IMG/VR virus record: IMGVR_UViG_3300025138_000014
Location: 87,330 to 151,329 of that record
DNA from: a virus
DNA: 64,000 nucleotides
Direction: 5' to 3' (one strand)
Under the pieces are notes generated by a model. It made no database searches and was not told the origin of the DNA. It was given only the letters and a program-made list of their open reading frames with translations. The stretch's first letter is position 1; each line of letters starts with the position of its first letter. Position numbers and translations under genes: made by a program. Positions 6,898-63,633 of the stretch are shown here, in pieces.

Positions 6898-7734
6898 ATG
6901 AAGAACAAAGTTGCCATTCTCGGTCACGGGTATGTAGGTAAAGCAGTAGAGTACGGCTTTTCAAATAAAAAGAATAAAATCCAATTAATTGATCCACATC
7001 TTTATGATAACTGTGTTGAAGATATTGAAGATCCAACTGTATCATTTGTATGTGTACCTACACCGATGAGTAGTGATGGCAATATTGATTCTAGTATCGT
7101 CGAAGAAGTAACCGAACAATTGATGATTCGTACTTCTGGTTTAATTGTTATCAAGTCTACAGTAATACCATCAGTAGTGAAAAGATTAAGCGATAAAAAT
7201 CATAGAGTAATTTATAACCCAGAATTTTTAACTGAAAGAAATGCTCTTATTGATTTTGTTAATCCTCCAATGCACGTATTTGGCGGACACGAAAATGAGA
7301 CAGAGCAGCTACATAAATTCTATACAACTAATAGCCGTTGTAAACCTGCTCCAATTTTTAAGATGAGTGCTGCAGAAGCAGCTTTTGTAAAATACGGAAT
7401 TAATAGTTTCCTTGCAACAAAGGTACTATGGTTCAATCAATATAAGGATATGATAGATGACTTTGGAGCTGATTTTGATAACATTTCTAGCGCTATCGGT
7501 TCTGATCCCAGAATTGGCCAATCTCACACTCAAGTTCCTGGCCCTGACGGTCGTGCTGGGTTTGGCGGCGCTTGTTTCCCCAAGGATACATCAGCTCTTA
7601 TCGGATTTGATCACGGTAATATCCTCAGCGTTCTAAAATTAGTCGTGCAGGAAAACAGTGTTTATCGTAACCAGTATGAGTTAGATAGCCGAGAAAAAGA
7701 ACAGAATGTTGTTTACATTGAGTCAAATGTATAG
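6898..7734 (+). CDS. ugd: UDP-glucose 6-dehydrogenase (short form)
   Basis: GHGYVG, CVPTP, IKST, NPEFL, GFGGACFPKD. Confidence 0.9.
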   Translation: MKNKVAILGHGYVGKAVEYGFSNKKNKIQLIDPHLYDNCVEDIEDPTVSFVCVPTPMSSDGNIDSSIVEEVTEQLMIRTSGLIVIKSTVIPSVVKRLSDKNHRVIYNPEFLTERNALIDFVNPPMHVFGGHENETEQLHKFYTTNSRCKPAPIFKMSAAEAAFVKYGINSFLATKVLWFNQYKDMIDDFGADFDNISSAIGSDPRIGQSHTQVPGPDGRAGFGGACFPKDTSALIGFDHGNILSVLKLVVQENSVYRNQYELDSREKEQNVVYIESNV

Positions 7735-7740
7735 TATAAT
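7712..7740 (+). promoter_or_regulatory. early promoter
   Basis: TTTACA-17-TATAAT. Confidence 0.75.
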
Positions 7741-7763
7741 AGACAGATTATAAGGAAGTTAAA

Positions 7764-8732
7764 ATGAAAAAACATATAATGGTAACAGGTGGTGCAGGCT
7801 TTATTGCTTACCATCTAATACAAAAACTTATTAAAGATGGCTATGAAGTATCTGCATTCGACAACTACAATGATTATTATGATCCAAAGTTGAAACATAA
7901 ACGTGCAGAGGAATTAATGTCTCTTGTTAATGTAGATGTACTTAATTGTGATCTAAAACAAGAAGAGGATCTGACTGATCTAGTTAGTGCTTACAAACCA
8001 GATGCTATTATCCATTTAGCTGCTTATGCTGGCGTAAGACATTCTTTGAGTGAACCACAAACATACATTGATAATAATATTACTGGAACACAAAATCTTA
8101 TTAATGCTTGTGAAAAAGCAGATGTTCAGCATGTAGTGTATGCTTCAACTTCTTGTACTATGGCGGGTAATGAATTACCGTGGAATGAAGATGAGAAAAC
8201 TGGTTATCAATTGAACCCATATGGCTATTCTAAATCAGCTAATGAAAACCAGATGATGTCCAGTAAAATTAAATTTACAACTGGTCTTCGGTTCTTTACT
8301 GTTTACGGACCATGGGGTCGCCCAGATATGGCTCTATTTGACTTTACTAAAGATATTATTGCAGGTACACCAATCAAGCTATTTAACTATGGCGACATGG
8401 TTCGTGATTTTACTTATGTAGATGATATTGTACAAGGCGTTGGCTTAGTTCTAAAAGATAGTTTTGATCGTGATAGTGAAGATACATTCGGCGAGATATA
8501 TAATATTGGTTACGGAGACCAAGTTAAGTTATTTGATTTTGTAACTGAGATTGAAGCTAATCTTGGTCGTGTAGCACAACGCGAGTTAGTTAAAATGCAT
8601 CCAGCCGATACACGTGAAACTTGGTCCGATACAACTAAAATTCGGAAGCTAGGTTACAATCCTACTACATCTATTGAAGATGGAGTGGCTAATTTTATAA
8701 CATGGTATAAAGGATATTATAATGTCAACTGA
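7764..8732 (+). CDS. NAD-dependent epimerase, UDP-glucuronate 4-epimerase-like
   Basis: TGGAGFI, DNYNDYYDPKLK, HLAAYAGVRHS, YGYSK, RFFTVYGPWGRPDMA, RDFTYVDD. Confidence 0.88.
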   Translation: MKKHIMVTGGAGFIAYHLIQKLIKDGYEVSAFDNYNDYYDPKLKHKRAEELMSLVNVDVLNCDLKQEEDLTDLVSAYKPDAIIHLAAYAGVRHSLSEPQTYIDNNITGTQNLINACEKADVQHVVYASTSCTMAGNELPWNEDEKTGYQLNPYGYSKSANENQMMSSKIKFTTGLRFFTVYGPWGRPDMALFDFTKDIIAGTPIKLFNYGDMVRDFTYVDDIVQGVGLVLKDSFDRDSEDTFGEIYNIGYGDQVKLFDFVTEIEANLGRVAQRELVKMHPADTRETWSDTTKIRKLGYNPTTSIEDGVANFITWYKGYYNVN

Positions 8733-8892
8733 TGCAGCAACACAACTTATGACTGAAGCCGCTAAATTTCATGGAATTACATATGCACAACTTCGGCATA
8801 GAATTACATCTGGTGGCGAAAGCCTTATGCAACCATATTATGAAAGCAAAAGCTGGAAAGATTTATATAAAGTAGCAGAACAATGCGAGTAG
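8722..8892 (+). CDS. small hypothetical protein (56 aa, not in ORF track)
   Basis: ATG with AGGA SD, fills gap between epimerase and cytidylyltransferase. Confidence 0.55.
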   Translation: MSTDAATQLMTEAAKFHGITYAQLRHRITSGGESLMQPYYESKSWKDLYKVAEQCE

Positions 8893-9305
8893 GTATTACA
8901 GCCTCAACCTTTGATTTGCTTCATGCTGGTCACGTTGCTATGCTTCGAGAAGCTAAAGAGCAATGTGATCACCTAATCTGTGCACTACAGATTGATCCTA
9001 CAATTGATAGAATAGAAAAGAACAAACCTATTCAAACTGTAGTTGAAAGATATACTCAGCTGGCAGCAGTAAGATATGTAGATGAAGTTATTGTATATTC
9101 TACAGAACAAGACTTACTAGATATTTTACAAATGTATCCAATTAATGTACGGATCTTAGGAGACGAATACAAGCTAAAAGAATTTACAGGAAAAAATGAA
9201 TGCCGTAAACTCGGCATTGAATTACATTTTAATAGCAGAAATCACAGGTTCTCAACATCAGATTTAAGAGAACGTGTCTGCAATGAGAGGAAAAAAACCA
9301 AATGA
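8883..9305 (+). CDS. glycerol-3-phosphate-type cytidylyltransferase
   Basis: FDLLHAGH, ERY.QL.A..YVDE, R.H.FSTS. Confidence 0.88.
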   Translation: MRVGITASTFDLLHAGHVAMLREAKEQCDHLICALQIDPTIDRIEKNKPIQTVVERYTQLAAVRYVDEVIVYSTEQDLLDILQMYPINVRILGDEYKLKEFTGKNECRKLGIELHFNSRNHRFSTSDLRERVCNERKKTK

Positions 9306-10342
9306 GTTCCATTATGGATAAACTCCAGAAGAATACTAAGTTGAAAAATACTGAAATTTTATCTGAGTCAAAATTTTTTAATGAAAAAGATATGACTACA
9401 ACTTCTGTTCCGATGGTCAATGTGGCACTATCAGGATCAATGGACGGTGGATTATCCCCAGGACTAACAGTACTTGCTGGTCCATCTAAACACTTTAAAA
9501 CTTCCTTTGCTTTACTTATGGCAGGTGCTTATCTGGATAAACATCCGAATGCAGTAATGTTGTTTTACGACTCAGAGTTTGGTTCACCACAATCTTACTT
9601 TAAACAATTTGGTATTGATACAAAACGGGTACTTCATACACCAATTACTAATGTAGAAGAACTAAAATTTGACGTAGTAAATCAACTTGAAGGTCTTGAC
9701 CGAAAAGATGAAGTAATTATTGTTATTGACTCAATCGGTAATCTTGCTTCAAAGAAAGAACTTGAAGATGCTCAGAATGAAAAGTCTGTAGCAGATATGT
9801 CTCGTGCTAAACAGCTGAAGTCTTTGTTTAGAATGTGTACTCCATATCTTGCTATGAAAAATATTTCTATGCTAGCAGTCAATCACACTTATCAAGAAAT
9901 CGGTTTATTCCCTAAAGCAATTGTTTCTGGTGGAACTGGTATATATTATTCAGCTGATAATATTTGGATTATCGGTCGCCGCCAGAATAAAAAGGGTATG
10001 GAAGTTACTGGTTATGATTTTGTTATTAATGTTGAGAAGTCTCGGTTTGTTAAAGAGAAATCAAAGATTCCGATTACAGTATCATGGGAAGGCGGAGTAC
10101 AAACTTATTCAGGTTTGTTAGAAGTTGCAATGCAAGGTGAGTATGTAAGGAAACCAGCAAACGGTTGGTATGAACCAATTAACCCAGAAACAGGTGAAGT
10201 GTTGGCTGGCAAGGCTCGTGAAGCACAGACCCTAGAAAAAGAGTTTTGGGATCCAGTATTTGAGCAAACCAACTTTAAAGAATTTATCAAAAAACAGTTT
10301 ACAATTGGCCATAAAGCTGATATAGTATTAGAGGTAGAATAA
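9302..10342 (+). CDS. uvsX: UvsX RecA-like recombinase
   Basis: AGPSKHFKT, YDSEFG, DSIGNLASKKE, DMSRAK. Confidence 0.96.
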   Translation: MSSIMDKLQKNTKLKNTEILSESKFFNEKDMTTTSVPMVNVALSGSMDGGLSPGLTVLAGPSKHFKTSFALLMAGAYLDKHPNAVMLFYDSEFGSPQSYFKQFGIDTKRVLHTPITNVEELKFDVVNQLEGLDRKDEVIIVIDSIGNLASKKELEDAQNEKSVADMSRAKQLKSLFRMCTPYLAMKNISMLAVNHTYQEIGLFPKAIVSGGTGIYYSADNIWIIGRRQNKKGMEVTGYDFVINVEKSRFVKEKSKIPITVSWEGGVQTYSGLLEVAMQGEYVRKPANGWYEPINPETGEVLAGKAREAQTLEKEFWDPVFEQTNFKEFIKKQFTIGHKADIVLEVE

Positions 10343-20536: not shown

Positions 20537-20604
20537 ATTAACTGTTTACAAGCTATTCATTATATGATATTATAAAGTTATATGATAAATAGGAGAAATA
20601 ATTA

Positions 20605-21828
20605 ATGTTAACCTTTAGTCAACTCAAAGAACAAAAAAACATGCACATGACTCATATAGAGGATAAAGTCCTTTATGGTGGTGTGAAAGGAACAAGACAG
20701 GCTATACTTGCACTTCGAGAGTTGCGAGATATGCTAAAAGGAGAACATGATGGAACAGTTAGTGTTAAATGGGATGGTGCTCCTGCTATTTTTGCTGGCA
20801 TTGATCCGTCTGACGGTAAGTTTTTTGTTGCTAAAAAATCAATATTCAATAAAAATCCTAAAGTCTACAAGTCGGCATCTGATGTCAATTCTGATACTAC
20901 AGGTGATCTTGCTCAAAAGCTGGTGCTTGCTCTAAAGTATCTACCAGAGTTAGGTATCACAGGTGTTATTCAAGGCGACTATTTATTTGAACAATCAGAC
21001 TTAAAGAAAGAAAAAATCAAAGGAGATGACTATGTCACTTTCCACCCTAATACAATTCTATACGCAATCCCAGCCAACTCTCAAGAAGCAAAAGAAGTAC
21101 AATCTGCTAAACTGGGTATTGTCTGGCATACAACATATAATGGCGCAAGTTTTCAAGAGATGAGAGCATCGTACGGCGTGAATGTATCTAAATTTAAAAA
21201 GTCCAAAAACGTGTGGTCACAAGATGCTATGTTAACTGATATGACCAACTATACTATGTCAAAATCAGAAACGGAGACTGTAAATGATCATCTACAAAAA
21301 GCTGGTAAACTTTTTAACCAGATTAATTCAACTACCCTTAAAACTCTTGAAGCTAATCAAGAGTTGGCTAAACTCATTGAAATGTTCAATAATACTTATG
21401 TTCGGAAGGGTGAAATCGTTAGTAGTCCGGCTGCTCATGCTACCAAGCTTGTTACTTGGATATCTGAAAGGTATGCTAAGGAAATAACTAAGTTAAAGAC
21501 CGAGAAGGGAAAAGCAGGTAAACAAGCCAAACTAGATAGTATTCTGAGTTTCTTTTCTGGGTCTAATAAAGTATCATTAATTAAGATGTTTGAATTACAG
21601 CAAACCATTGTTTTGGCTAAACTAAACCTTATAAATATACTTAATAAGCTATCAAAGACAAAAACTTTTGTTAAGACCAAAAACGGATATAAGACGACTG
21701 GTCCAGAAGGTTACGTTGCTATAGATAGACTTGGTGGTGGTGCTGTTAAAATAGTTGATAGGATGGAATTTTCCTACAATAACTTCTCAGCTGATATATT
21801 AAAGGGATGGGATAAACCAGGAAGGTAA
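20605..21828 (+). CDS. ligase-like covalent nucleotidyltransferase-fold protein (DUF6267-like)
   Basis: VKWDGAPA (motif I), QGD, EGYV, VKIVDR; N-terminus MLTFSQLKE. Confidence 0.6.
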   Translation: MLTFSQLKEQKNMHMTHIEDKVLYGGVKGTRQAILALRELRDMLKGEHDGTVSVKWDGAPAIFAGIDPSDGKFFVAKKSIFNKNPKVYKSASDVNSDTTGDLAQKLVLALKYLPELGITGVIQGDYLFEQSDLKKEKIKGDDYVTFHPNTILYAIPANSQEAKEVQSAKLGIVWHTTYNGASFQEMRASYGVNVSKFKKSKNVWSQDAMLTDMTNYTMSKSETETVNDHLQKAGKLFNQINSTTLKTLEANQELAKLIEMFNNTYVRKGEIVSSPAAHATKLVTWISERYAKEITKLKTEKGKAGKQAKLDSILSFFSGSNKVSLIKMFELQQTIVLAKLNLINILNKLSKTKTFVKTKNGYKTTGPEGYVAIDRLGGGAVKIVDRMEFSYNNFSADILKGWDKPGR

Positions 21829-21831
21829 AAG

Positions 21832-22269
21832 ATGACTAAGTCATTAGAAGAAATACGTGAGAACCGTATTGTAGAAGAAAAGTGTGAAGATTGCGGTTGC
21901 GACATGGACAATCCAAAAGACGATTGTGATTGTAGTAACCATACGAATGTGGATGAAGCACTAACTATTTCACAGCGCCGTAATAAGTCAATCAGCATGA
22001 AAAGAAATAAAGCAAAAGTTGCTATTGGTAGAAAACGTGCCGCGAAAAAGATGGCTAGTAGTGCAGTTATTGGCAAGCGTGCTCAAAGACAAGCACGTAA
22101 TCAGATGGCTAAAAAGTTCACTAAAGATGTACCAAAAAGTGATTTAAGTCCAGCGAGAAAAGCTGCAATTGAGAAACGCTTAGATAAGATGAAAGGGCGT
22201 ATTAATAGAATAGCCAAGAAATTGGTTAAAGACGTCCGTAGAAAAGAAATTGAAAGAAAGCGCGGCTAG
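21832..22269 (+). CDS. basic putative internal virion protein
   Basis: MTKSLEEIRE N-terminus, CxxCxC..CDC, Lys/Arg-rich C-half. Confidence 0.65.
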   Translation: MTKSLEEIRENRIVEEKCEDCGCDMDNPKDDCDCSNHTNVDEALTISQRRNKSISMKRNKAKVAIGRKRAAKKMASSAVIGKRAQRQARNQMAKKFTKDVPKSDLSPARKAAIEKRLDKMKGRINRIAKKLVKDVRRKEIERKRG

Positions 22270-22272
22270 ATT

Positions 22273-23217
22273 ATGAAGTATAGTTTTTCCGACTATTTAA
22301 TTGAAGCGGAAGGTGCGGTATATTTTACTTTTGGTAGAATGAACCCACCAACCGAAGGTCATGGTAAGTTACTTGATAAATTATCAAGTTCTGCCAGAAA
22401 TGCTCCTTATATGGTATTCCTATCTCAAACAAATGATAAGAATAAAAACCCACTACAGTATAAAGATAAAATAAAATTTGTTAGAAAAATGTTTCCAAAA
22501 CATGCACGACAAATTATACTTGATACCAAAATTAAAACTCCAATGCATGCCTTAGACCACTTATATAACAAAGGTTATAAAAAAGTTGTTATGATTGCAG
22601 GTAGTGATAGAGTAGTAGAATGGGATCTTCGACTTAATAAATACAACGGAAAAAAGAGACACGAAGGTTTCTATAATTTTGAAGGTGGTATTAAAGTTGT
22701 ATCAGCTGGAATTAGAGACCCAGACTCAAAAGATGTAGAAGGTTATTCTGGTACTAAGCAAAGAGAATCAGCTAAGGCCAATGACTTTCAAACATTCTCA
22801 CTAGCACTTCCAAGAACAATGTCTGATAAAGATGCTAAAACTCTTTTCAATACTGTTCGGACTGGCATGGGTCTCAAAGAAGAAAAAGCATTTAAAAACC
22901 ACGTTGAATTTAACCCTGTTTCAGAAACTCGTGAGGCATATGTCTCTGGAGATTATCTGAAAGAAGGCGATAAAGTGATCGTTAAAGATAGTGAAGAAAT
23001 TTGCAAAGTTACTATGTTAGGTGCAAATTATGTTATAGTAGAATCCAGTTCAGGTAAAAGATCACGTAAGTGGCTTGATGCAGTTGAATTGTTAAAAGAA
23101 AAGAAAAAAGATCAACCTGAAGAAGGAACACCTGCAGCTACAGAAAAAATGAAAAAAGCTGTAGCTGGTCAGAAATCGTTTAAAGCATATATCGGAGCAA
23201 CAAATGAAAAAGTTTAA
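22273..23217 (+). CDS. HIGH-superfamily nucleotidyltransferase (cytidylyl/adenylyltransferase-like)
   Basis: FTFGRMNPPTEGH, NPL, AGSDRV, SAG.RDPD, SGTK.R. Confidence 0.8.
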   Translation: MKYSFSDYLIEAEGAVYFTFGRMNPPTEGHGKLLDKLSSSARNAPYMVFLSQTNDKNKNPLQYKDKIKFVRKMFPKHARQIILDTKIKTPMHALDHLYNKGYKKVVMIAGSDRVVEWDLRLNKYNGKKRHEGFYNFEGGIKVVSAGIRDPDSKDVEGYSGTKQRESAKANDFQTFSLALPRTMSDKDAKTLFNTVRTGMGLKEEKAFKNHVEFNPVSETREAYVSGDYLKEGDKVIVKDSEEICKVTMLGANYVIVESSSGKRSRKWLDAVELLKEKKKDQPEEGTPAATEKMKKAVAGQKSFKAYIGATNEKV

Positions 23218-23368
23218 AAAATTTATGGATGAGGGTGAAAAAGGTGGACTATGGGATAACATTCATAAGAAACGTGCACGTATTAAAAAAGGTTCAGGCG
23301 AAAAGATGCGTAAACCTGGATCAAAAGGCGCCCCAACTAATGCAGATTTAAAAGCTGCACAGAACTAG
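23204..23368 (+). CDS. small basic protein (54 aa, not in ORF track)
   Basis: MKKFKKFMDE..GLWDNIHKKRARIKKGSGEKMRKPGSKGAPT; GGAG SD. Confidence 0.75.
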   Translation: MKKFKKFMDEGEKGGLWDNIHKKRARIKKGSGEKMRKPGSKGAPTNADLKAAQN

Positions 23369-23370
23369 AT

Positions 23371-23643
23371 ATGAAAACCTTTAAATCTATTAGAGAAAAA
23401 GATAAGCATTATCGTTCCACTAAGTCTGGAGCAGGTATGACACAAAAAGGTGTTGATGCTGTAAATAGAAAGACTGGTGGAAACTTACAAACTGCAGTTA
23501 CTGGTAATCCTAAACCAGGATCTAAAGATGCGGGTAGAAGAAAATCATTCTGTGCTAGAATGGGTGGAATGAAAGGTCCTATGAAGGATGATAAAGGCCG
23601 CCCTACAAGAAAAGCTATGTCACTAAAAAGATGGAAATGTTAA
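23371..23643 (+). CDS. small basic protein (DUF6321-like)
   Basis: RRKSFCARM.GM...RWKC. Confidence 0.75.
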   Translation: MKTFKSIREKDKHYRSTKSGAGMTQKGVDAVNRKTGGNLQTAVTGNPKPGSKDAGRRKSFCARMGGMKGPMKDDKGRPTRKAMSLKRWKC

Positions 23644-23647
23644 GACA

Positions 23648-24190
23648 ATGATGAAATTCCAAACATTTAACGAGTCGGCCCTGTCCGCGCTTAGAACAGC
23701 CACTAAAGCACATGCAGGACAAACTAGAAAAAGCGGCGGTGCGTATATTAACCACCCTAAAGAAGTTGCCCGCTTTGTAAAACAATTTAAAAAGTCGAAT
23801 AACTTATCAGCTATGATTCAAGCTGCTTATCTTCACGACACTCTTGAAGATACTGATACGACATATCAAGACTTAGTTAAACAGTTCGGCGCTCTTGTAG
23901 CTGATATGGTCCAAGAATTAACTACCGATAAAGCAGCATCTGATGCAATTGGTAAAGGTGAATACATTGCAAATAAAATGGCTAAAATGTCCAGTTGGGC
24001 ACTAGTTGTTAAGTTAGCAGACAGACTTGCCAATGTGCAAGATATAGATACGAGACCAGCAGACTTTCAAAAGAAGTATGCAGCTCAAACTACATTAGCA
24101 ATTAAAAAATTAAGAAGTGATCGGTACTTGAGTAAAACTCATAACAAGATTATAACTGCAATTGAGAAGAAAATTAAAGAATATGTGTAA
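23648..24190 (+). CDS. HD-domain small alarmone hydrolase (Mesh1/SpoT-HD)
   Basis: AHAGQTRK.GG.YINHP, AAYLHDTLEDT, VQELT, VKLADRLAN. Confidence 0.9.
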   Translation: MMKFQTFNESALSALRTATKAHAGQTRKSGGAYINHPKEVARFVKQFKKSNNLSAMIQAAYLHDTLEDTDTTYQDLVKQFGALVADMVQELTTDKAASDAIGKGEYIANKMAKMSSWALVVKLADRLANVQDIDTRPADFQKKYAAQTTLAIKKLRSDRYLSKTHNKIITAIEKKIKEYV

Positions 24191-24191
24191 G

Positions 24192-24199
24192 TATAAATA
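24192..24199 (+). promoter_or_regulatory. T4-type late promoter
   Basis: TATAAATA. Confidence 0.75.
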
Positions 24200-24218: not shown

Positions 24219-24500
24219 ATGGCTGAGGAAAATGACCAGGTTAGATTAGACCGAATAGAACAGAAGTTGGATAAGTTGGCTGAAGCACTAATCACAATTG
24301 CACGTTTTGAAGAAAAAATGGATGCTTATAATGAGTATCGTCTAAACTCGTGGGAACGAATGAATAAGTTTTCAGAAAAATTAGATAACATAGAGAAAAA
24401 AGTTGACGAAAATGCTCACACAGTTACTGTTATTAACAAACTGTTTTGGGTTGCAATAGTTGCGGCGTCTGGCGCCATAGCAGCACAAGTATGGATGTAA
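24219..24500 (+). CDS. coiled-coil protein with C-terminal TM
   Basis: RLDRIEQKLDKL..., hydrophobic C-terminus. Confidence 0.7.
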   Translation: MAEENDQVRLDRIEQKLDKLAEALITIARFEEKMDAYNEYRLNSWERMNKFSEKLDNIEKKVDENAHTVTVINKLFWVAIVAASGAIAAQVWM

Positions 24501-24512
24501 AAGGAAAAAACC

Positions 24513-25925
24513 ATGAAACATAATAACAGTCTGAGTGCCATACTATTGTCACTCAAAGAGAAAAAACTTCACCCTAACCAAAAAGAGTTAGACAAAGATG
24601 GTGATGGTGATATCGACCCTAAAGATTTTGCTATGCTTAGAAAGCAAGCAGGCAAGATCAATAAGAAAAAAGATAAAGAAGAAGTTGAAGAAGCGCAGAT
24701 GGATAAAATGAAAAAGGTTAGCAAAGGGTTTGATGATCGCCGCAGCGCCACGCTCCATAATGATCACCTAGTGGGAAGTAAAAAGGCTTCAGGCAAAAGC
24801 TATGTTGACAAACACTCAGATGGAAAATTTTACGTTGTTGATGTGAAAGAAGAATCAGTCAATGAATTGAGCAAGAAAACTCTTGGTAGTTATGCCAAGA
24901 AAGCTATGACTGATAAAGATACACAAAGTCGCTTTGCCACCGAATATGAAAAGCGTGGAATGGCAGCTAAAAGCACTGCAGTGCAGCACAAGAATTTCAA
25001 AAAAGCAAACCGTGCAGATGATAAGTTTCGTAATCGTACAACTGGTATCAACAAAGCTATTGATAAACTGACTAAAGAAAGCAGCCTAGACGAAATCAGC
25101 AAAACAAAGATGGGTCAATATATCAATCGCGCTCATTCTGATAAAGACACTCAGACTAAACGTGCAGGTATGTTTGATAAAAAAGGCATGGATGCTGATA
25201 AAGACAAAGATATGTACAAGCAATTTGATAACGCTGATAAGGCTCGTAAGAAAGCTGCAAACAGAACGGCTGGTATTGGTAAAGCGGTTAATAAACTGAC
25301 TAAAGAATCCAATATCTCAAATAAGTCGGCTGATAAAAAACCAGAAGAATATACTGATGAAAAAGGTATGAAGCGGACTAGAATGGTTCCTGTAGACAGA
25401 CAAGTTTTAAAAGATGCAATGCCTTCACAAGCTGATGCAATTAAAGCGTTGAATAAAAAGACTGCTGCTCAGAAAGCTAAAAATACAGATAAACTTAAAG
25501 CTGCGGGTAAGATGATGCCTACTAAGGAATCAATAGGTAAAACAGCTGGAGATAGTAGTTATCATAATCTGCAAAAAGCAAAAAGAATGGCTTCTAAAGA
25601 TGGCCACGACTATGATAAGTTACCAGCATATGACCGTACACATGATAAACACAGAGAGTATTACGATAACAAAGCTAAAACAACAAAAGAATCAACTGAC
25701 TGGCCTATCTATAGAAGAATTATGGAAAAAGCTAATCATACATCTGATTCAAAAACATCCGAGCCAATGGATAGTAAACTACAACCATTTGAGAAAAAAA
25801 TGGTAGATGCTCATAAAGTTACTCCTCCAAATGAACTTGTAGATGTAAATAAAGCAATTGAAAAAAATCTAAAGACTTTGTCAACAGCACCTATTAAACA
25901 AGCTGCTAAACCAAACGGTCAATAA
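24513..25925 (+). CDS. Lys-rich repeat-containing putative internal head protein
   Basis: EF-hand-like DKDGDGDIDPKD; two ~76-aa repeats; recurrent TKES. Confidence 0.65.
   Translation: MKHNNSLSAILLSLKEKKLHPNQKELDKDGDGDIDPKDFAMLRKQAGKINKKKDKEEVEEAQMDKMKKVSKGFDDRRSATLHNDHLVGSKKASGKSYVDKHSDGKFYVVDVKEESVNELSKKTLGSYAKKAMTDKDTQSRFATEYEKRGMAAKSTAVQHKNFKKANRADDKFRNRTTGINKAIDKLTKESSLDEISKTKMGQYINRAHSDKDTQTKRAGMFDKKGMDADKDKDMYKQFDNADKARKKAANRTAGIGKAVNKLTKESNISNKSADKKPEEYTDEKGMKRTRMVPVDRQVLKDAMPSQADAIKALNKKTAAQKAKNTDKLKAAGKMMPTKESIGKTAGDSSYHNLQKAKRMASKDGHDYDKLPAYDRTHDKHREYYDNKAKTTKESTDWPIYRRIMEKANHTSDSKTSEPMDSKLQPFEKKMVDAHKVTPPNELVDVNKAIEKNLKTLSTAPIKQAAKPNGQ
24864..25310 (+). repeat. tandem ~76-aa protein repeat (2 copies)
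   Basis: ELSKKTLGSY..DKDTQ..NRTTGINKAIDKLTKES / EISKTKMGQY..DKDTQ..NRTAGIGKAVNKLTKES. Confidence 0.8.
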
Positions 25926-56783: not shown

Positions 56784-57188
56784 ATGCTATCATTTAAGAA
56801 CTATCTGGCTGAAGATACAAGCTGTGATCTAATAGGTCTACAGAAGATTAAGGCTTTTGAGAAGTTTGTCGATAAGATGTTTAAGAGGTATGATATTGAC
56901 TTCAACTTCACGAGACATTTTGGAGACCGTATGAGTGATAAGAGGAACACACCTTGTATCACCATGAAAGAGTTAGCCAATTTTATCCAAAAGATATATA
57001 AGAATGCAGGCAAATCACTCAAAGCTGAGAAGGGTGCCGAAGCAGTTATTAAAGATATGCAGTCAGACTTAAACATACCTATTGCGGTTAAATACGATCA
57101 ACGTAAAGATGAGTTTGATGTAGTAATGAAAACAATAATGCGTAAGAAGAATTTTAAAACCCCTAACAAATTAATTACTTACAAATAA
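56784..57188 (+). CDS. putative internal virion protein
   Basis: N-terminus MLSFKNYLAE; HFGDRM, KTIMRK. Confidence 0.65.
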   Translation: MLSFKNYLAEDTSCDLIGLQKIKAFEKFVDKMFKRYDIDFNFTRHFGDRMSDKRNTPCITMKELANFIQKIYKNAGKSLKAEKGAEAVIKDMQSDLNIPIAVKYDQRKDEFDVVMKTIMRKKNFKTPNKLITYK

Positions 57189-62200: not shown

Positions 62201-63633
62201 TATGATCCTAGCTAAAATTAGGTGTTTACATCTACCTTGATATAGGTTATTCTAAGTACAGAAACAGGAGATAGCAAATGACTAAGCAACAACTAATCAA
62301 AGAAGCACTGAGACTGAAAAAGATCATCCAAGATCCTAAAGAAGCACACTCTGATTTAGATTGGTATAAGCATTTGTTTGTAACTGTTGTTAACCGTATC
62401 GAAAATAAGGAGTACACAGTATGAAAAAGAATTATCGTAAAGCATTCGACTCACTACGCAAAATCGGTGCACCTGTACTAGAAGGTGGTGATAACGGCGA
62501 GGATACATTCCGTATTAGTGCAGAAGATAATAATCATACTACATGGGCTGACTATTATATAGAACATGATAATAACGGTATGTTCTTGTTCGGTGTAAAC
62601 AATCAAATCACTCAAGTGCTAGATGAGAATGGTCTCTATGCAGAGTGGATCAACCCCGGCGTTCTAGCCGTATGTGAGGTGTAATATGCAGATAAAAGGT
62701 GCAACAACAATTCTAAATAAGCGTGCAGAGTTTTTTGGTAAAACACTGAGCGAATTAATTGATATGTACGATAATGGTTTTGACGACAATCATAATGTGC
62801 TTGTAGCATATGAAGTTTATAAAATGTCTCAAGGCTTTTACTGGAAAGGTACCGAGGGCGACACTTGGATACTGAGACAAGAGAGGAATATTAATGCGTA
62901 AAAAAATTCATAAAGATTTCCGTGTAGTGGAAGAAAGAACTGGTCTTGATACAATCTATCGTATTAAGATTGGTCCCAATGGCAACACTACCACTATAGC
63001 TCAGAATAGAGATTATGATACTGCAGTTACTATGTGTGAAAATCTAAATAAAGATCGATGGTTCTTGGACCGTGGAAAAACCAGAGCAGATGTACTTGCT
63101 CGTCATAGCAAAATGGAGAATGTGTAATGAACTTGTCAAATGGAACACGATCAGAAATGATTAATGAACTAAAGAAAAGCACTTGTCGTGTTATCTTTAC
63201 AAAAGTCAATGGTGATGAACGTAATATGGTTTGCACTCTTGATGAGAGTATTATCCCTGCTCCAGTAGTAGCAGCTGAAAATCGTGGCACAATGATTAAA
63301 GAAATTCAGAGTCGCACGGTAAATGAAGATGTTATTCCTGTATGGGATATTACTGCAGAGGGATGGCGCTCTTTTAGAGTTGATTCTGTACTGTCTTTTG
63401 TATGTGAGGGTACTGTAGCATAAATGTACATTGACCCGAATGTAATACATCTAATGTTTGGTGTTGTCTGCTTTGGCTGTGGAGTCATGGCAGGCTACCA
63501 TTTCTTTCGTCGAAATAATGATATAATTATCGGTGATACTATAGACTTTCTCATAGAAGGTAAGTATATTAAACATAGAATAAATGAAGATGGCGAAGTA
63601 GAAATCATCCCACTTAAAGGAGACAAGAAATGA
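59267..63633 (+). CDS. early region of small hypothetical ORFs (59323-59502, 59582-59794, ~59867-60133, ~60126-60368, 60365-60622, 60626-60961, 61090-61323, 61336-61539, 61539-61898, 61961-62215, 62278-62424, 62421-62684, ~62686-62901, 62894-63127, 63424-63633)
   Basis: Dense + strand ORFs fed by promoters at 59267, 59518, 59808, 61031, 61908, 62225. Confidence 0.6.
61901..62280 (+). repeat. duplicated promoter-RBS cassette
   Basis: TTAGGTGTTTACAT..GGTTATTCTAA..AGAAACAGGAGATAGCAAATG at 61901-61963 and 62218-62280. Confidence 0.85.
63127..63423 (+). CDS. WYL-like/SH3-fold protein
   Basis: V.FTKVNG..R.M.CTL, VWD....WRSFR.D. Confidence 0.8.
   Translation: MNLSNGTRSEMINELKKSTCRVIFTKVNGDERNMVCTLDESIIPAPVVAAENRGTMIKEIQSRTVNEDVIPVWDITAEGWRSFRVDSVLSFVCEGTVA

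Follow-up and report, generated by a model that had tools for sequence, protein, structure and literature searches.

Enzymes with T4-type capsid-targeting N-termini in an uncultured marine T4-like phage: a candidate internal-protein locus

Results

A compact gene cluster whose products share an N-terminal sequence

We analyzed a window of 64,000 nucleotides from an uncultured phage (bases 87330-151329 of the 151-kb genome IMGVR_UViG_3300025138_000014, CheckV completeness 71%), concentrating on a cluster of genes at window positions 20605-24190, most of whose products begin with a short sequence, here called the tag, that resembles the capsid-targeting sequence (CTS) of the phage T4 internal proteins. 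The cluster comprises six open reading frames (ORFs), named here by their first base: a DUF6267 protein (20605), a Cys-rich protein (21832), an adenylyltransferase (22273), two small basic proteins (23204 and 23371) and an alarmone hydrolase (23648). They are tightly packed, with gaps of 2 to 4 bases or a short overlap, and therefore look like a single operon. Nearly all genes of the window lie on one strand, and its G+C content is about 36%. Among public records, the Kyanoviridae phage C48C1 is the nearest, with 61% identity in the DUF6267 protein; T4-like cyanophages, the Methylophilales phage Melnitz and pelagiphages are remoter relatives. The source is a marine T4-like myophage related to the Kyanoviridae.

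Six ORFs of the window (20605, 22273, 23204, 23371, 23648 and, outside the cluster, 56784) start with the pattern M-x-x-F-K-x-[F/Y]-[I/L]-x-E. An initial annotation of this DNA had quoted seven N-termini, all of which we found at their coordinates, letter for letter. It had also counted six consecutive tagged ORFs; five of these are convincing, while ORF 21832 has a degenerate match and scores only 1.5 on a tag position matrix trained exclusively on the N-termini of relatives. With scores of 9.5 to 17.8, the same matrix set seven proteins of the genome apart from the rest, namely the products of ORFs 56784, 23204, 23371, 22273, 20605 and 23648 and of an ORF at genome position 71447. A 645-amino-acid protein scored 9.2, but it belongs to a conserved 2OG-Fe(II) oxygenase family in which the N-terminus is part of the domain, and it is probably a chance match. 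Phe at position 4 (position 5 in ORF 22273) combined with Phe, Tyr, Ile or Leu at position 7 occurs in the six patterned ORFs and not in ORF 21832. The tags end in L-K-E, L-I-E, I-R-E or L-A-E, with M-D-E and F-N-E in two others, and the terminal Glu is invariant among orthologues.

To gauge enrichment, we used a core motif without the initial Met, F-[KSQRTN]-x-[FYIL]-x(0-2)-E, which was defined after the data were seen. Among the 216 predicted proteins, seven N-termini carry it with its Phe at residues 3 to 6, against 0.5 expected from the frequency of the motif elsewhere in the proteome (P ~1e-6). The tagged genes are also clustered, five of the seven falling within six consecutive genes (simulated P ~5e-6). 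A looser regular expression gave modest enrichment only (9 against ~3 expected; P = 0.004), and its matches at genome positions 32570 and 38153 are false positives.

The tag is conserved as peptide and is portable

The tag is carried by 91% of DUF6267 orthologues and by 67 to 100% of the members of several small ORFan families, while many neighboring families have it in 0% of members. A logo built from 217 unique tagged N-termini, which came from the source genome and 80 related metagenomic loci, gave the consensus M-x-x-F-K-x-[F/Y]-[I/L]-x-E, with Phe at position 4, Phe or Tyr at 7, Ile or Leu at 8 and Glu at 10. The codons of the conserved residues vary widely (six Leu codons are used at one invariant Leu, for example), and selection therefore acts on the peptide rather than on the DNA or RNA.

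Across a diverse set of full-length DUF6267 proteins, the tag is present in 46 of 113. Most of the untagged ones begin directly at the conserved start of the domain, K-N-x-H-x-x-H-x-E-D, and a few have near-variants of the tag. HD hydrolases show the same present-or-absent pattern: a large phage clade has a tag and linker before the domain, and distant homologues start at the domain itself. The tag thus behaves as a portable extension that may or may not precede one and the same domain, be it DUF6267 or HD. It was disordered ahead of a confidently predicted domain in both AlphaFold2 models that we built. Ten other tagged protein families from relatives yielded no Pfam domain.

The consensus matches the T4 CTS, and the genome encodes a T4-order head module

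In the T4 record, IPII and IPIII begin MKTYQEFIAE and IPI begins MKTFKEF. Residues 4 and 7 of the T4 CTS act in targeting and residues 8 and 10 in processing by gp21, and the T4 proteins bearing it are ejected (PMC9026906). The marine consensus keeps exactly these four positions, so that the comparison with T4 capsid targeting drawn in the initial annotation holds residue by residue, at the functional positions, against IPI, IPII and IPIII. The closest T4 match in the genome is ORF 56784, which has the top tag score (17.8) and carries F4, Y7, L8 and E10 at the CTS positions.

Upstream of the window lies a head module in T4 order: portal, a gp67-like gene, a 74-amino-acid ORF in the gp68 slot, gp21, gp22 and gp23. 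The gp21 head-maturation protease (phrog_207, E = 4.8e-77) and the gp22 scaffolding core gene (phrog_237, E = 1e-72) are both encoded, with the portal and gp23 genes adjacent. The 74-amino-acid ORF, which is flanked by the gp67-like gene and gp21 and lies 15.9 kb upstream of the window (genome 71447-71671), is itself tagged; it matched no PHROG family.

Could the shared N-terminus have nothing to do with the capsid, and instead serve as a signal in translation initiation or in the mRNA, act as a degron or chaperone handle, or be a short amphipathic helix kept by chance in a recombining cluster? Neighboring genes could come to share their starts by recombination, the end of ORF 22273 contains a tag-like stretch just before the tag of the next gene, and the enrichment of the loose pattern is modest. 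However, the synonymous codon variation argues against a signal at the nucleotide level, and two unlinked genes (ORF 56784 and the one at genome 71447) have the tag too, as do unrelated families in distant phages. The position-by-position match to the experimentally defined CTS of T4, and the ability of the tag to predict virion detection in cyanophage S-CREM2 (see below), further make this explanation very improbable.

Tagged relatives are found in cyanophage virions

That tagged proteins are packaged in the capsid, as the initial annotation had proposed, is supported by published virion proteomes, which detect tagged orthologues in relatives. We used those of three T4-like cyanophages, S-SM1, S-SCSM1 and S-CREM2. 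In S-SM1, the cytidylyltransferase gp190 was recorded with 25 peptide counts and gp192 with 7 (PMC3037559, Table S8); the N-terminus of gp190 is a canonical tag, and gp192 is tagged as well. The DUF6267 protein of the same phage (T4-GC71, gp189) is untagged and is missing from that table. The NMNAT-like ORF91 of S-SCSM1, a virion protein (PMC9602691), starts with the tag.

In S-CREM2, mass spectrometry (MS) detected a S-adenosylmethionine (SAM) hydrolase (gp6), a kinase (gp14), a cytidylyltransferase (gp154) and a hypothetical protein (gp136) in the virion (PMC10665884, Table 3). Three of the six puzzling "non-structural" virion proteins, gp6, gp14 and gp154, are tagged, as is gp136; weaker tags start gp13 and gp15, and undetected neighbors have none. 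When all 234 predicted ORFs of S-CREM2 were scored with a matrix trained on the clade of the window, the four best-scoring proteins (gp154, gp6, gp14 and gp136) were all among those detected by MS, against a base rate of 21%; three ORFs scored at least 12 (Fisher P = 0.009 for MS detection). Another virion-detected protein, the "Cas9-like" gp12 (7704-10313, minus strand, of the S-CREM2 stretch), has a tag-like L-R-F-A-S-F-M-A-E at residues 17 to 25, and its true start may lie downstream of the annotated one. These proteome papers do not mention an N-terminal signal; they either leave the presence in virions unexplained or consider that it may be contamination, and in the searchable literature we found no paper linking the CTS to cyanophage virion enzymes.

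The same data bear on whether tagged proteins act only in the prohead core, in assembly or on the core or the packaged DNA, perhaps being degraded like gp22, gp67 and gp68, with no injected kit. A tagged 74-amino-acid ORF sits exactly in the slot of the core protein gp68, and several tagged products are small and basic, as would suit DNA condensation. Yet the mature virions of three cyanophages contain tagged enzymes by MS, and the peptide counts of the S-SM1 cytidylyltransferase resemble those of structural proteins. It is not obvious what an alarmone hydrolase or a nucleotidyltransferase would act on inside a capsid, and the T4 proteins with this tag are ejected. We therefore regard a role confined to the prohead as distinctly unlikely.

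Predicted activities of the three tagged enzymes

The first tagged gene, ORF 20605 (20605..21828, plus strand), encodes a 407-amino-acid DUF6267 protein (Pfam E = 1.4e-101) with its tag at residues 1 to 9, ending in L-K-E. Its layout is that of a ligase-superfamily nucleotidyltransferase with an inserted helical domain. In 73 homologues of 35 to 56% identity, K55-x-D57-G58, G124-D125, E368-G369 and K382 are invariant and F146 nearly so. The AlphaFold2 model has a mean confidence score (pLDDT) of 94, with residues 1 to 8 disordered. Searches of this model with Foldseek gave weak rows only; the ligase fold came out with VIA-align, in which all nonhelical structure matches were adenylyltransferase domains of ATP-dependent RNA or DNA ligases (Z = 6.0 to 8.4 over 160 to 207 residues). 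They included the Naegleria RNA ligase (Z = 8.0 to 8.4, 182 residues), T4 Rnl2 (Z = 7.2 to 7.3, 168 residues), Trl1 and archaeal Rnl3, and DNA ligase I at a Z of about 6. Candidate motifs III (G124-D125), IIIa (F146-x-P-N149), IV (E368-G369) and V (K382...R386), assigned by eye, are conserved and in the right order. The invariant K-x-D-G and the ligase-type fold in the structure matches thus bear out an earlier description of this protein as a KxDG ligase-like nucleotidyltransferase.

At the sequence level, neither PF01068 (at the default E limit of 0.001) nor PF09414 (to E = 10) had a match in the genome, and no solved ligase structure was found at a meaningful level by searching with the single DUF6267 sequence or a 73-sequence profile. 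The modeled structure suggests that DUF6267 likely shares ancestry with ligases, the Z values being middling, and that ORF 20605 encodes a protein of ligase fold. The PF01068 DNA ligase was not found in the 151-kb record, which is 71% complete, and DUF6267 is the only ligase-fold protein seen in it. We found no mention of DUF6267 in the searchable literature. Throughout the Kyanoviridae, its gene adjoins that of the cytidylyltransferase, and the two are sometimes fused (phrog_455).

ORF 22273 (22273..23217, plus strand) encodes a tagged PPAT/NMNAT-like adenylyltransferase with a C-terminal SH3-like barrel and a tag at residues 1 to 11, ending in L-I-E. It corresponds to the cyanophage core "cytidylyltransferase" (T4-GC190) and matches PF01467 at 24.6 bits against a cutoff of 21, as well as phrog_395 and phrog_3041 (E ~1e-57). 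The T-x-G-H and S-G-T-K-Q-R motifs show little or no variation, T27-x-G29-H30, S159, K162 and R164 being invariant in the orthologues; F5 and E11 of the tag are invariant in 31 orthologues. In Foldseek, the best matches were PPAT/CoaD and NMNAT (E = 2e-5 to 5e-4, probability 1.0), and PPAT/CoaD and NMNAT (NadM, NadD) ranked equally, which narrows the substrate no further than PPAT/NMNAT. The Pfam score above cutoff, the conserved T-x-G-H and the fold agree with its earlier assignment as a HIGH nucleotidyltransferase. In C48C1 (OQ984149), the tblastn match to the cytidyltransferase begins at 63457, ahead of the start of the deposited coding sequence at 63514 (M-N-P-P-T), so that the tag is probably missing from the protein as deposited; miscalled start codons of this kind may often hide tags.

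The last enzyme gene of the cluster, ORF 23648 (23648..24190, plus strand), encodes a 180-amino-acid protein with a RelA/SpoT HD domain and a tag at residues 1 to 9 that runs into the start of the domain. It matches PF13328 (HD_4) at 61 bits against a cutoff of 27.2, and human MESH1/HDDC3 with an E value of 6e-17, the catalytic H-P, H-D, E-D and D...N motifs being aligned. A (p)ppGpp-type HD hydrolase had been proposed here, and the HD_4 score and the motifs uphold that proposal: by its sequence this is a MESH1-like small alarmone hydrolase, with (p)ppGpp or (p)ppApp as the predicted substrate.

Small basic proteins, neighboring genes and expression signals

Overlapping the end of the adenylyltransferase gene, ORF 23204 (23204..23368, plus strand) encodes a 54-amino-acid basic protein (phrog_16028, E = 7e-20) with a tag at residues 1 to 10 that scores 14.9. 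Its module, G-L-W-x-N-I-H-x-K-R, forms an in-frame C-terminal extension of the cytidylyltransferase in orthologous phages; a match in podovirus P-GSP1 was uninformative. At 23173-23233, the end of the cytidylyltransferase (…K-S-F-K-A-Y-I…) resembles a second tag without its Glu, just ahead of the overlapping start of ORF 23204, and tag-coding DNA may be a joint for the splitting and shuffling of modules. ORF 23371 (23371..23643, plus strand) encodes a 90-amino-acid basic protein with DUF6321 (PF19846, E = 1.2e-19) and a tag at residues 1 to 9, ending in I-R-E, that scores 14.2.

Between the DUF6267 and adenylyltransferase genes, ORF 21832 (21832..22269, plus strand) encodes a basic, Cys-rich protein of 145 amino acids with a phrog_23027 module (E = 5e-11), its tag degenerate or absent; its family in relatives starts with F-K-D-[FLM]-x-x-V-D-Y instead. 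The 134-amino-acid product of ORF 56784 (56784..57188, plus strand), tagged at residues 1 to 10, has the C-terminal module of phrog_23027 (E = 1.7e-36). The two thus match different parts of this 602-position family and are therefore modules of what is elsewhere a single longer protein, although here they lie 35 kb apart. The basic modules of ORFs 23204, 23371, 21832 and 56784 are fused to the cytidylyltransferase or to one another in other phages.

A Lys-rich protein of 470 amino acids (24513..25925, plus strand), with two internal repeats of about 75 residues, is a possible further, peripheral internal protein. Its relatives start with canonical tags, whereas the copy in the window does not, and it groups with ORFs 22273, 23204, 23371 and 56784 in one single-linkage cluster of shuffled basic modules. 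The 93-amino-acid protein encoded at 24219-24500, which combines a coiled coil with a hydrophobic helix at its C-terminus, is weakly holin-like (phrog_689, E = 5e-4); it is conserved beside the cargo genes, and an exact TATAAATA precedes it at 24192.

Two elements upstream of ORF 20605, both consensus matches only, are suggestive of promoters of the operon: a candidate sigma-70-like promoter at 20545-20573 (plus strand; TTTACA, a 17-nucleotide spacer and TG-TATTAT) and a candidate late-promoter-like GATAAATA at 20584-20591 (plus strand). The window shows no enrichment of late-promoter motifs of the T4 type.

An early promoter is what one might expect if the enzymes were mainly cytoplasmic auxiliaries of nucleotide, NAD and alarmone metabolism, with a minor packaged fraction of no consequence. 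Cyanophage clusters A and B also keep DUF6267 untagged and off the virion list, and the enzyme is therefore useful without packaging. On the other side, strong purifying selection maintains the tag in 91% of clade orthologues, and several unrelated enzymes have acquired it, which implies selection for packaging itself. On this evidence, a purely cytoplasmic importance of these enzymes seems unlikely.

Discussion

We propose, with a probability of about 0.78, that 20605-24190 (perhaps extending to 25925) and ORF 56784 constitute an internal-protein locus, whose tagged cargo is packaged, cut by gp21 and injected. Each product would begin with a propeptide of 9 to 11 residues, equivalent to the T4 CTS. 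As in T4, the propeptide would load the protein into the head by binding the scaffolding core as the prohead assembles; the gp21-type prohead protease would then cut after the Glu, and the mature proteins would remain beside the packaged DNA and accompany it into the host. By analogy with T4, we infer the core binding, the cleavage after Glu and the ejection with DNA. The cargo would comprise the DUF6267 RNA-ligase-fold nucleotidyltransferase, the PPAT/NMNAT-like adenylyltransferase, the MESH1-like (p)ppGpp/(p)ppApp hydrolase and several small basic proteins.

Several observations weigh against this proposal. Some proteins detected in virions are untagged, and TerS and CP12 of S-CREM2, which match the regular expression weakly, went undetected by MS. 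The proteome papers themselves (PMC9602691 among them) caution that MS of CsCl-purified virions may pick up abundant contaminants, and the detections concern orthologues or analogues in S-SM1, S-SCSM1 and S-CREM2, outside the clade of the source phage. Within the source phage, ORF 21832 has no convincing tag, because of its low matrix score and because Asn replaces the Glu at position 10 in a 98% identical relative. Three tags finish at Glu9 rather than Glu10, and in two the P3 position is Phe or Met rather than Leu or Ile. Finally, the sigma-70-like site suggests early expression, and packaging would fit only if the genes are also expressed late.

What the cargo would do at time zero is more speculative. 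The hydrolase might remove (p)ppGpp or (p)ppApp, the adenylyltransferase might restore NAD or a different adenylylated cofactor, the ligase-fold enzyme might reseal nucleic acid, and the basic proteins might accompany or shield the DNA. An early counter-defense activity of the cargo is an inference, and we advance it only tentatively, as a possible but rather doubtful reading: abundant marine T4-like phages would use the tag to deliver a premade counter-defense kit, with the hydrolase acting against toxSAS/CapRel or stringent-response shutdown, the NMNAT-like enzyme against NAD depletion, and the ligase-fold enzyme against anticodon or other RNA nucleases. If this were true, the tag alone would predict injected effectors straight from metagenomes.

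The T4 CTS and internal proteins are already known, as are virion-associated NMNAT-like proteins in cyanophages, whose presence there is already suspected in print. What appears to be new is the tag as an explanation of the proteome results, its breadth in marine T4-like phages, and cargo such as the small alarmone hydrolase and the tagged ligase-fold enzyme. The proposal gives a mechanistic account of a finding that has recurred without explanation, the presence of NMNAT-like enzymes, a kinase and a SAM hydrolase in cyanophage virion proteomes, and it would extend capsid targeting of the T4 kind to marine T4-like phages, an ecologically dominant group. With it comes a simple sequence rule for predicting virion-delivered proteins in uncultured phage genomes, as well as the prediction that the host receives a small alarmone hydrolase and a ligase-fold enzyme at time zero.

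Among known systems, T4 itself is the natural reference. There the CTS occurs on IPI, IPII and IPIII, with a further propeptide on Alt, and the prohead protease gp21 removes it. Common to both phages are a ten-residue N-terminal propeptide with an aromatic residue at position 4, an aromatic or hydrophobic one at 7, Ile or Leu at 8 and Glu at 10 (ORF 23371 and IPI share their first five residues, MKTFK), the same gp20-gp67-gp68 slot-gp21-gp22-gp23 head module, and small, basic, diverse and shuffled cargo. Unlike T4, which belongs to the Straboviridae, the source is a Kyanoviridae-related marine phage; the mature parts of its tagged proteins have no recognizable relationship to IPI, IPII or IPIII, and the cargo takes in metabolic and nucleic-acid enzymes of 180 to 407 amino acids. 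Several tags also end at Glu9, and in the source clade the system is a prediction from sequence.

The enzymes have their own counterparts. ORF 22273 is an orthologue (34 to 41% identity, in the same neighborhood) of the virion "cytidylyltransferase" T4-GC190 of S-SM1, S-SCSM1, S-CBWM1 and S-CREM2, and the MS-detected proteins of S-SM1, S-SCSM1 and S-CREM2 carry the same N-terminal tag; unlike in those cyanophages, it is followed by separately tagged basic modules, which are fused to the enzyme in relatives. Like human and Drosophila MESH1 and bacterial small alarmone hydrolases, ORF 23648 has a single HD_4 domain of about 180 amino acids with the catalytic motifs kept, but it differs from them in its capsid-targeting-type propeptide and its place in an internal-protein operon. 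DUF6267 resembles the RNA ligases T4 Rnl2, that of Naegleria gruberi and fungal Trl1 in its modeled adenylyltransferase fold (168 to 207 residues, Z = 7.1 to 8.4), its invariant Lys in K-x-D-G and the order of its candidate motifs III, IIIa, IV and V. It differs from them in having no sequence-level match to ligase profiles or solved structures and in carrying, between candidate motifs IIIa and IV, an insertion of about 130 residues that forms a helical domain, and it has neither an OB domain nor a C-terminal domain of the Rnl2 type.

A further parallel is found in giant phages such as SPN3US and phiKZ-like phages. Their propeptides are longer and are not known to contain a ten-residue targeting motif of the T4 type. 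A T4-related prohead protease in these phages is reported to cut many head-internal proteins after Glu, and the products are delivered to the host (PMC5694885, PMC7411985).

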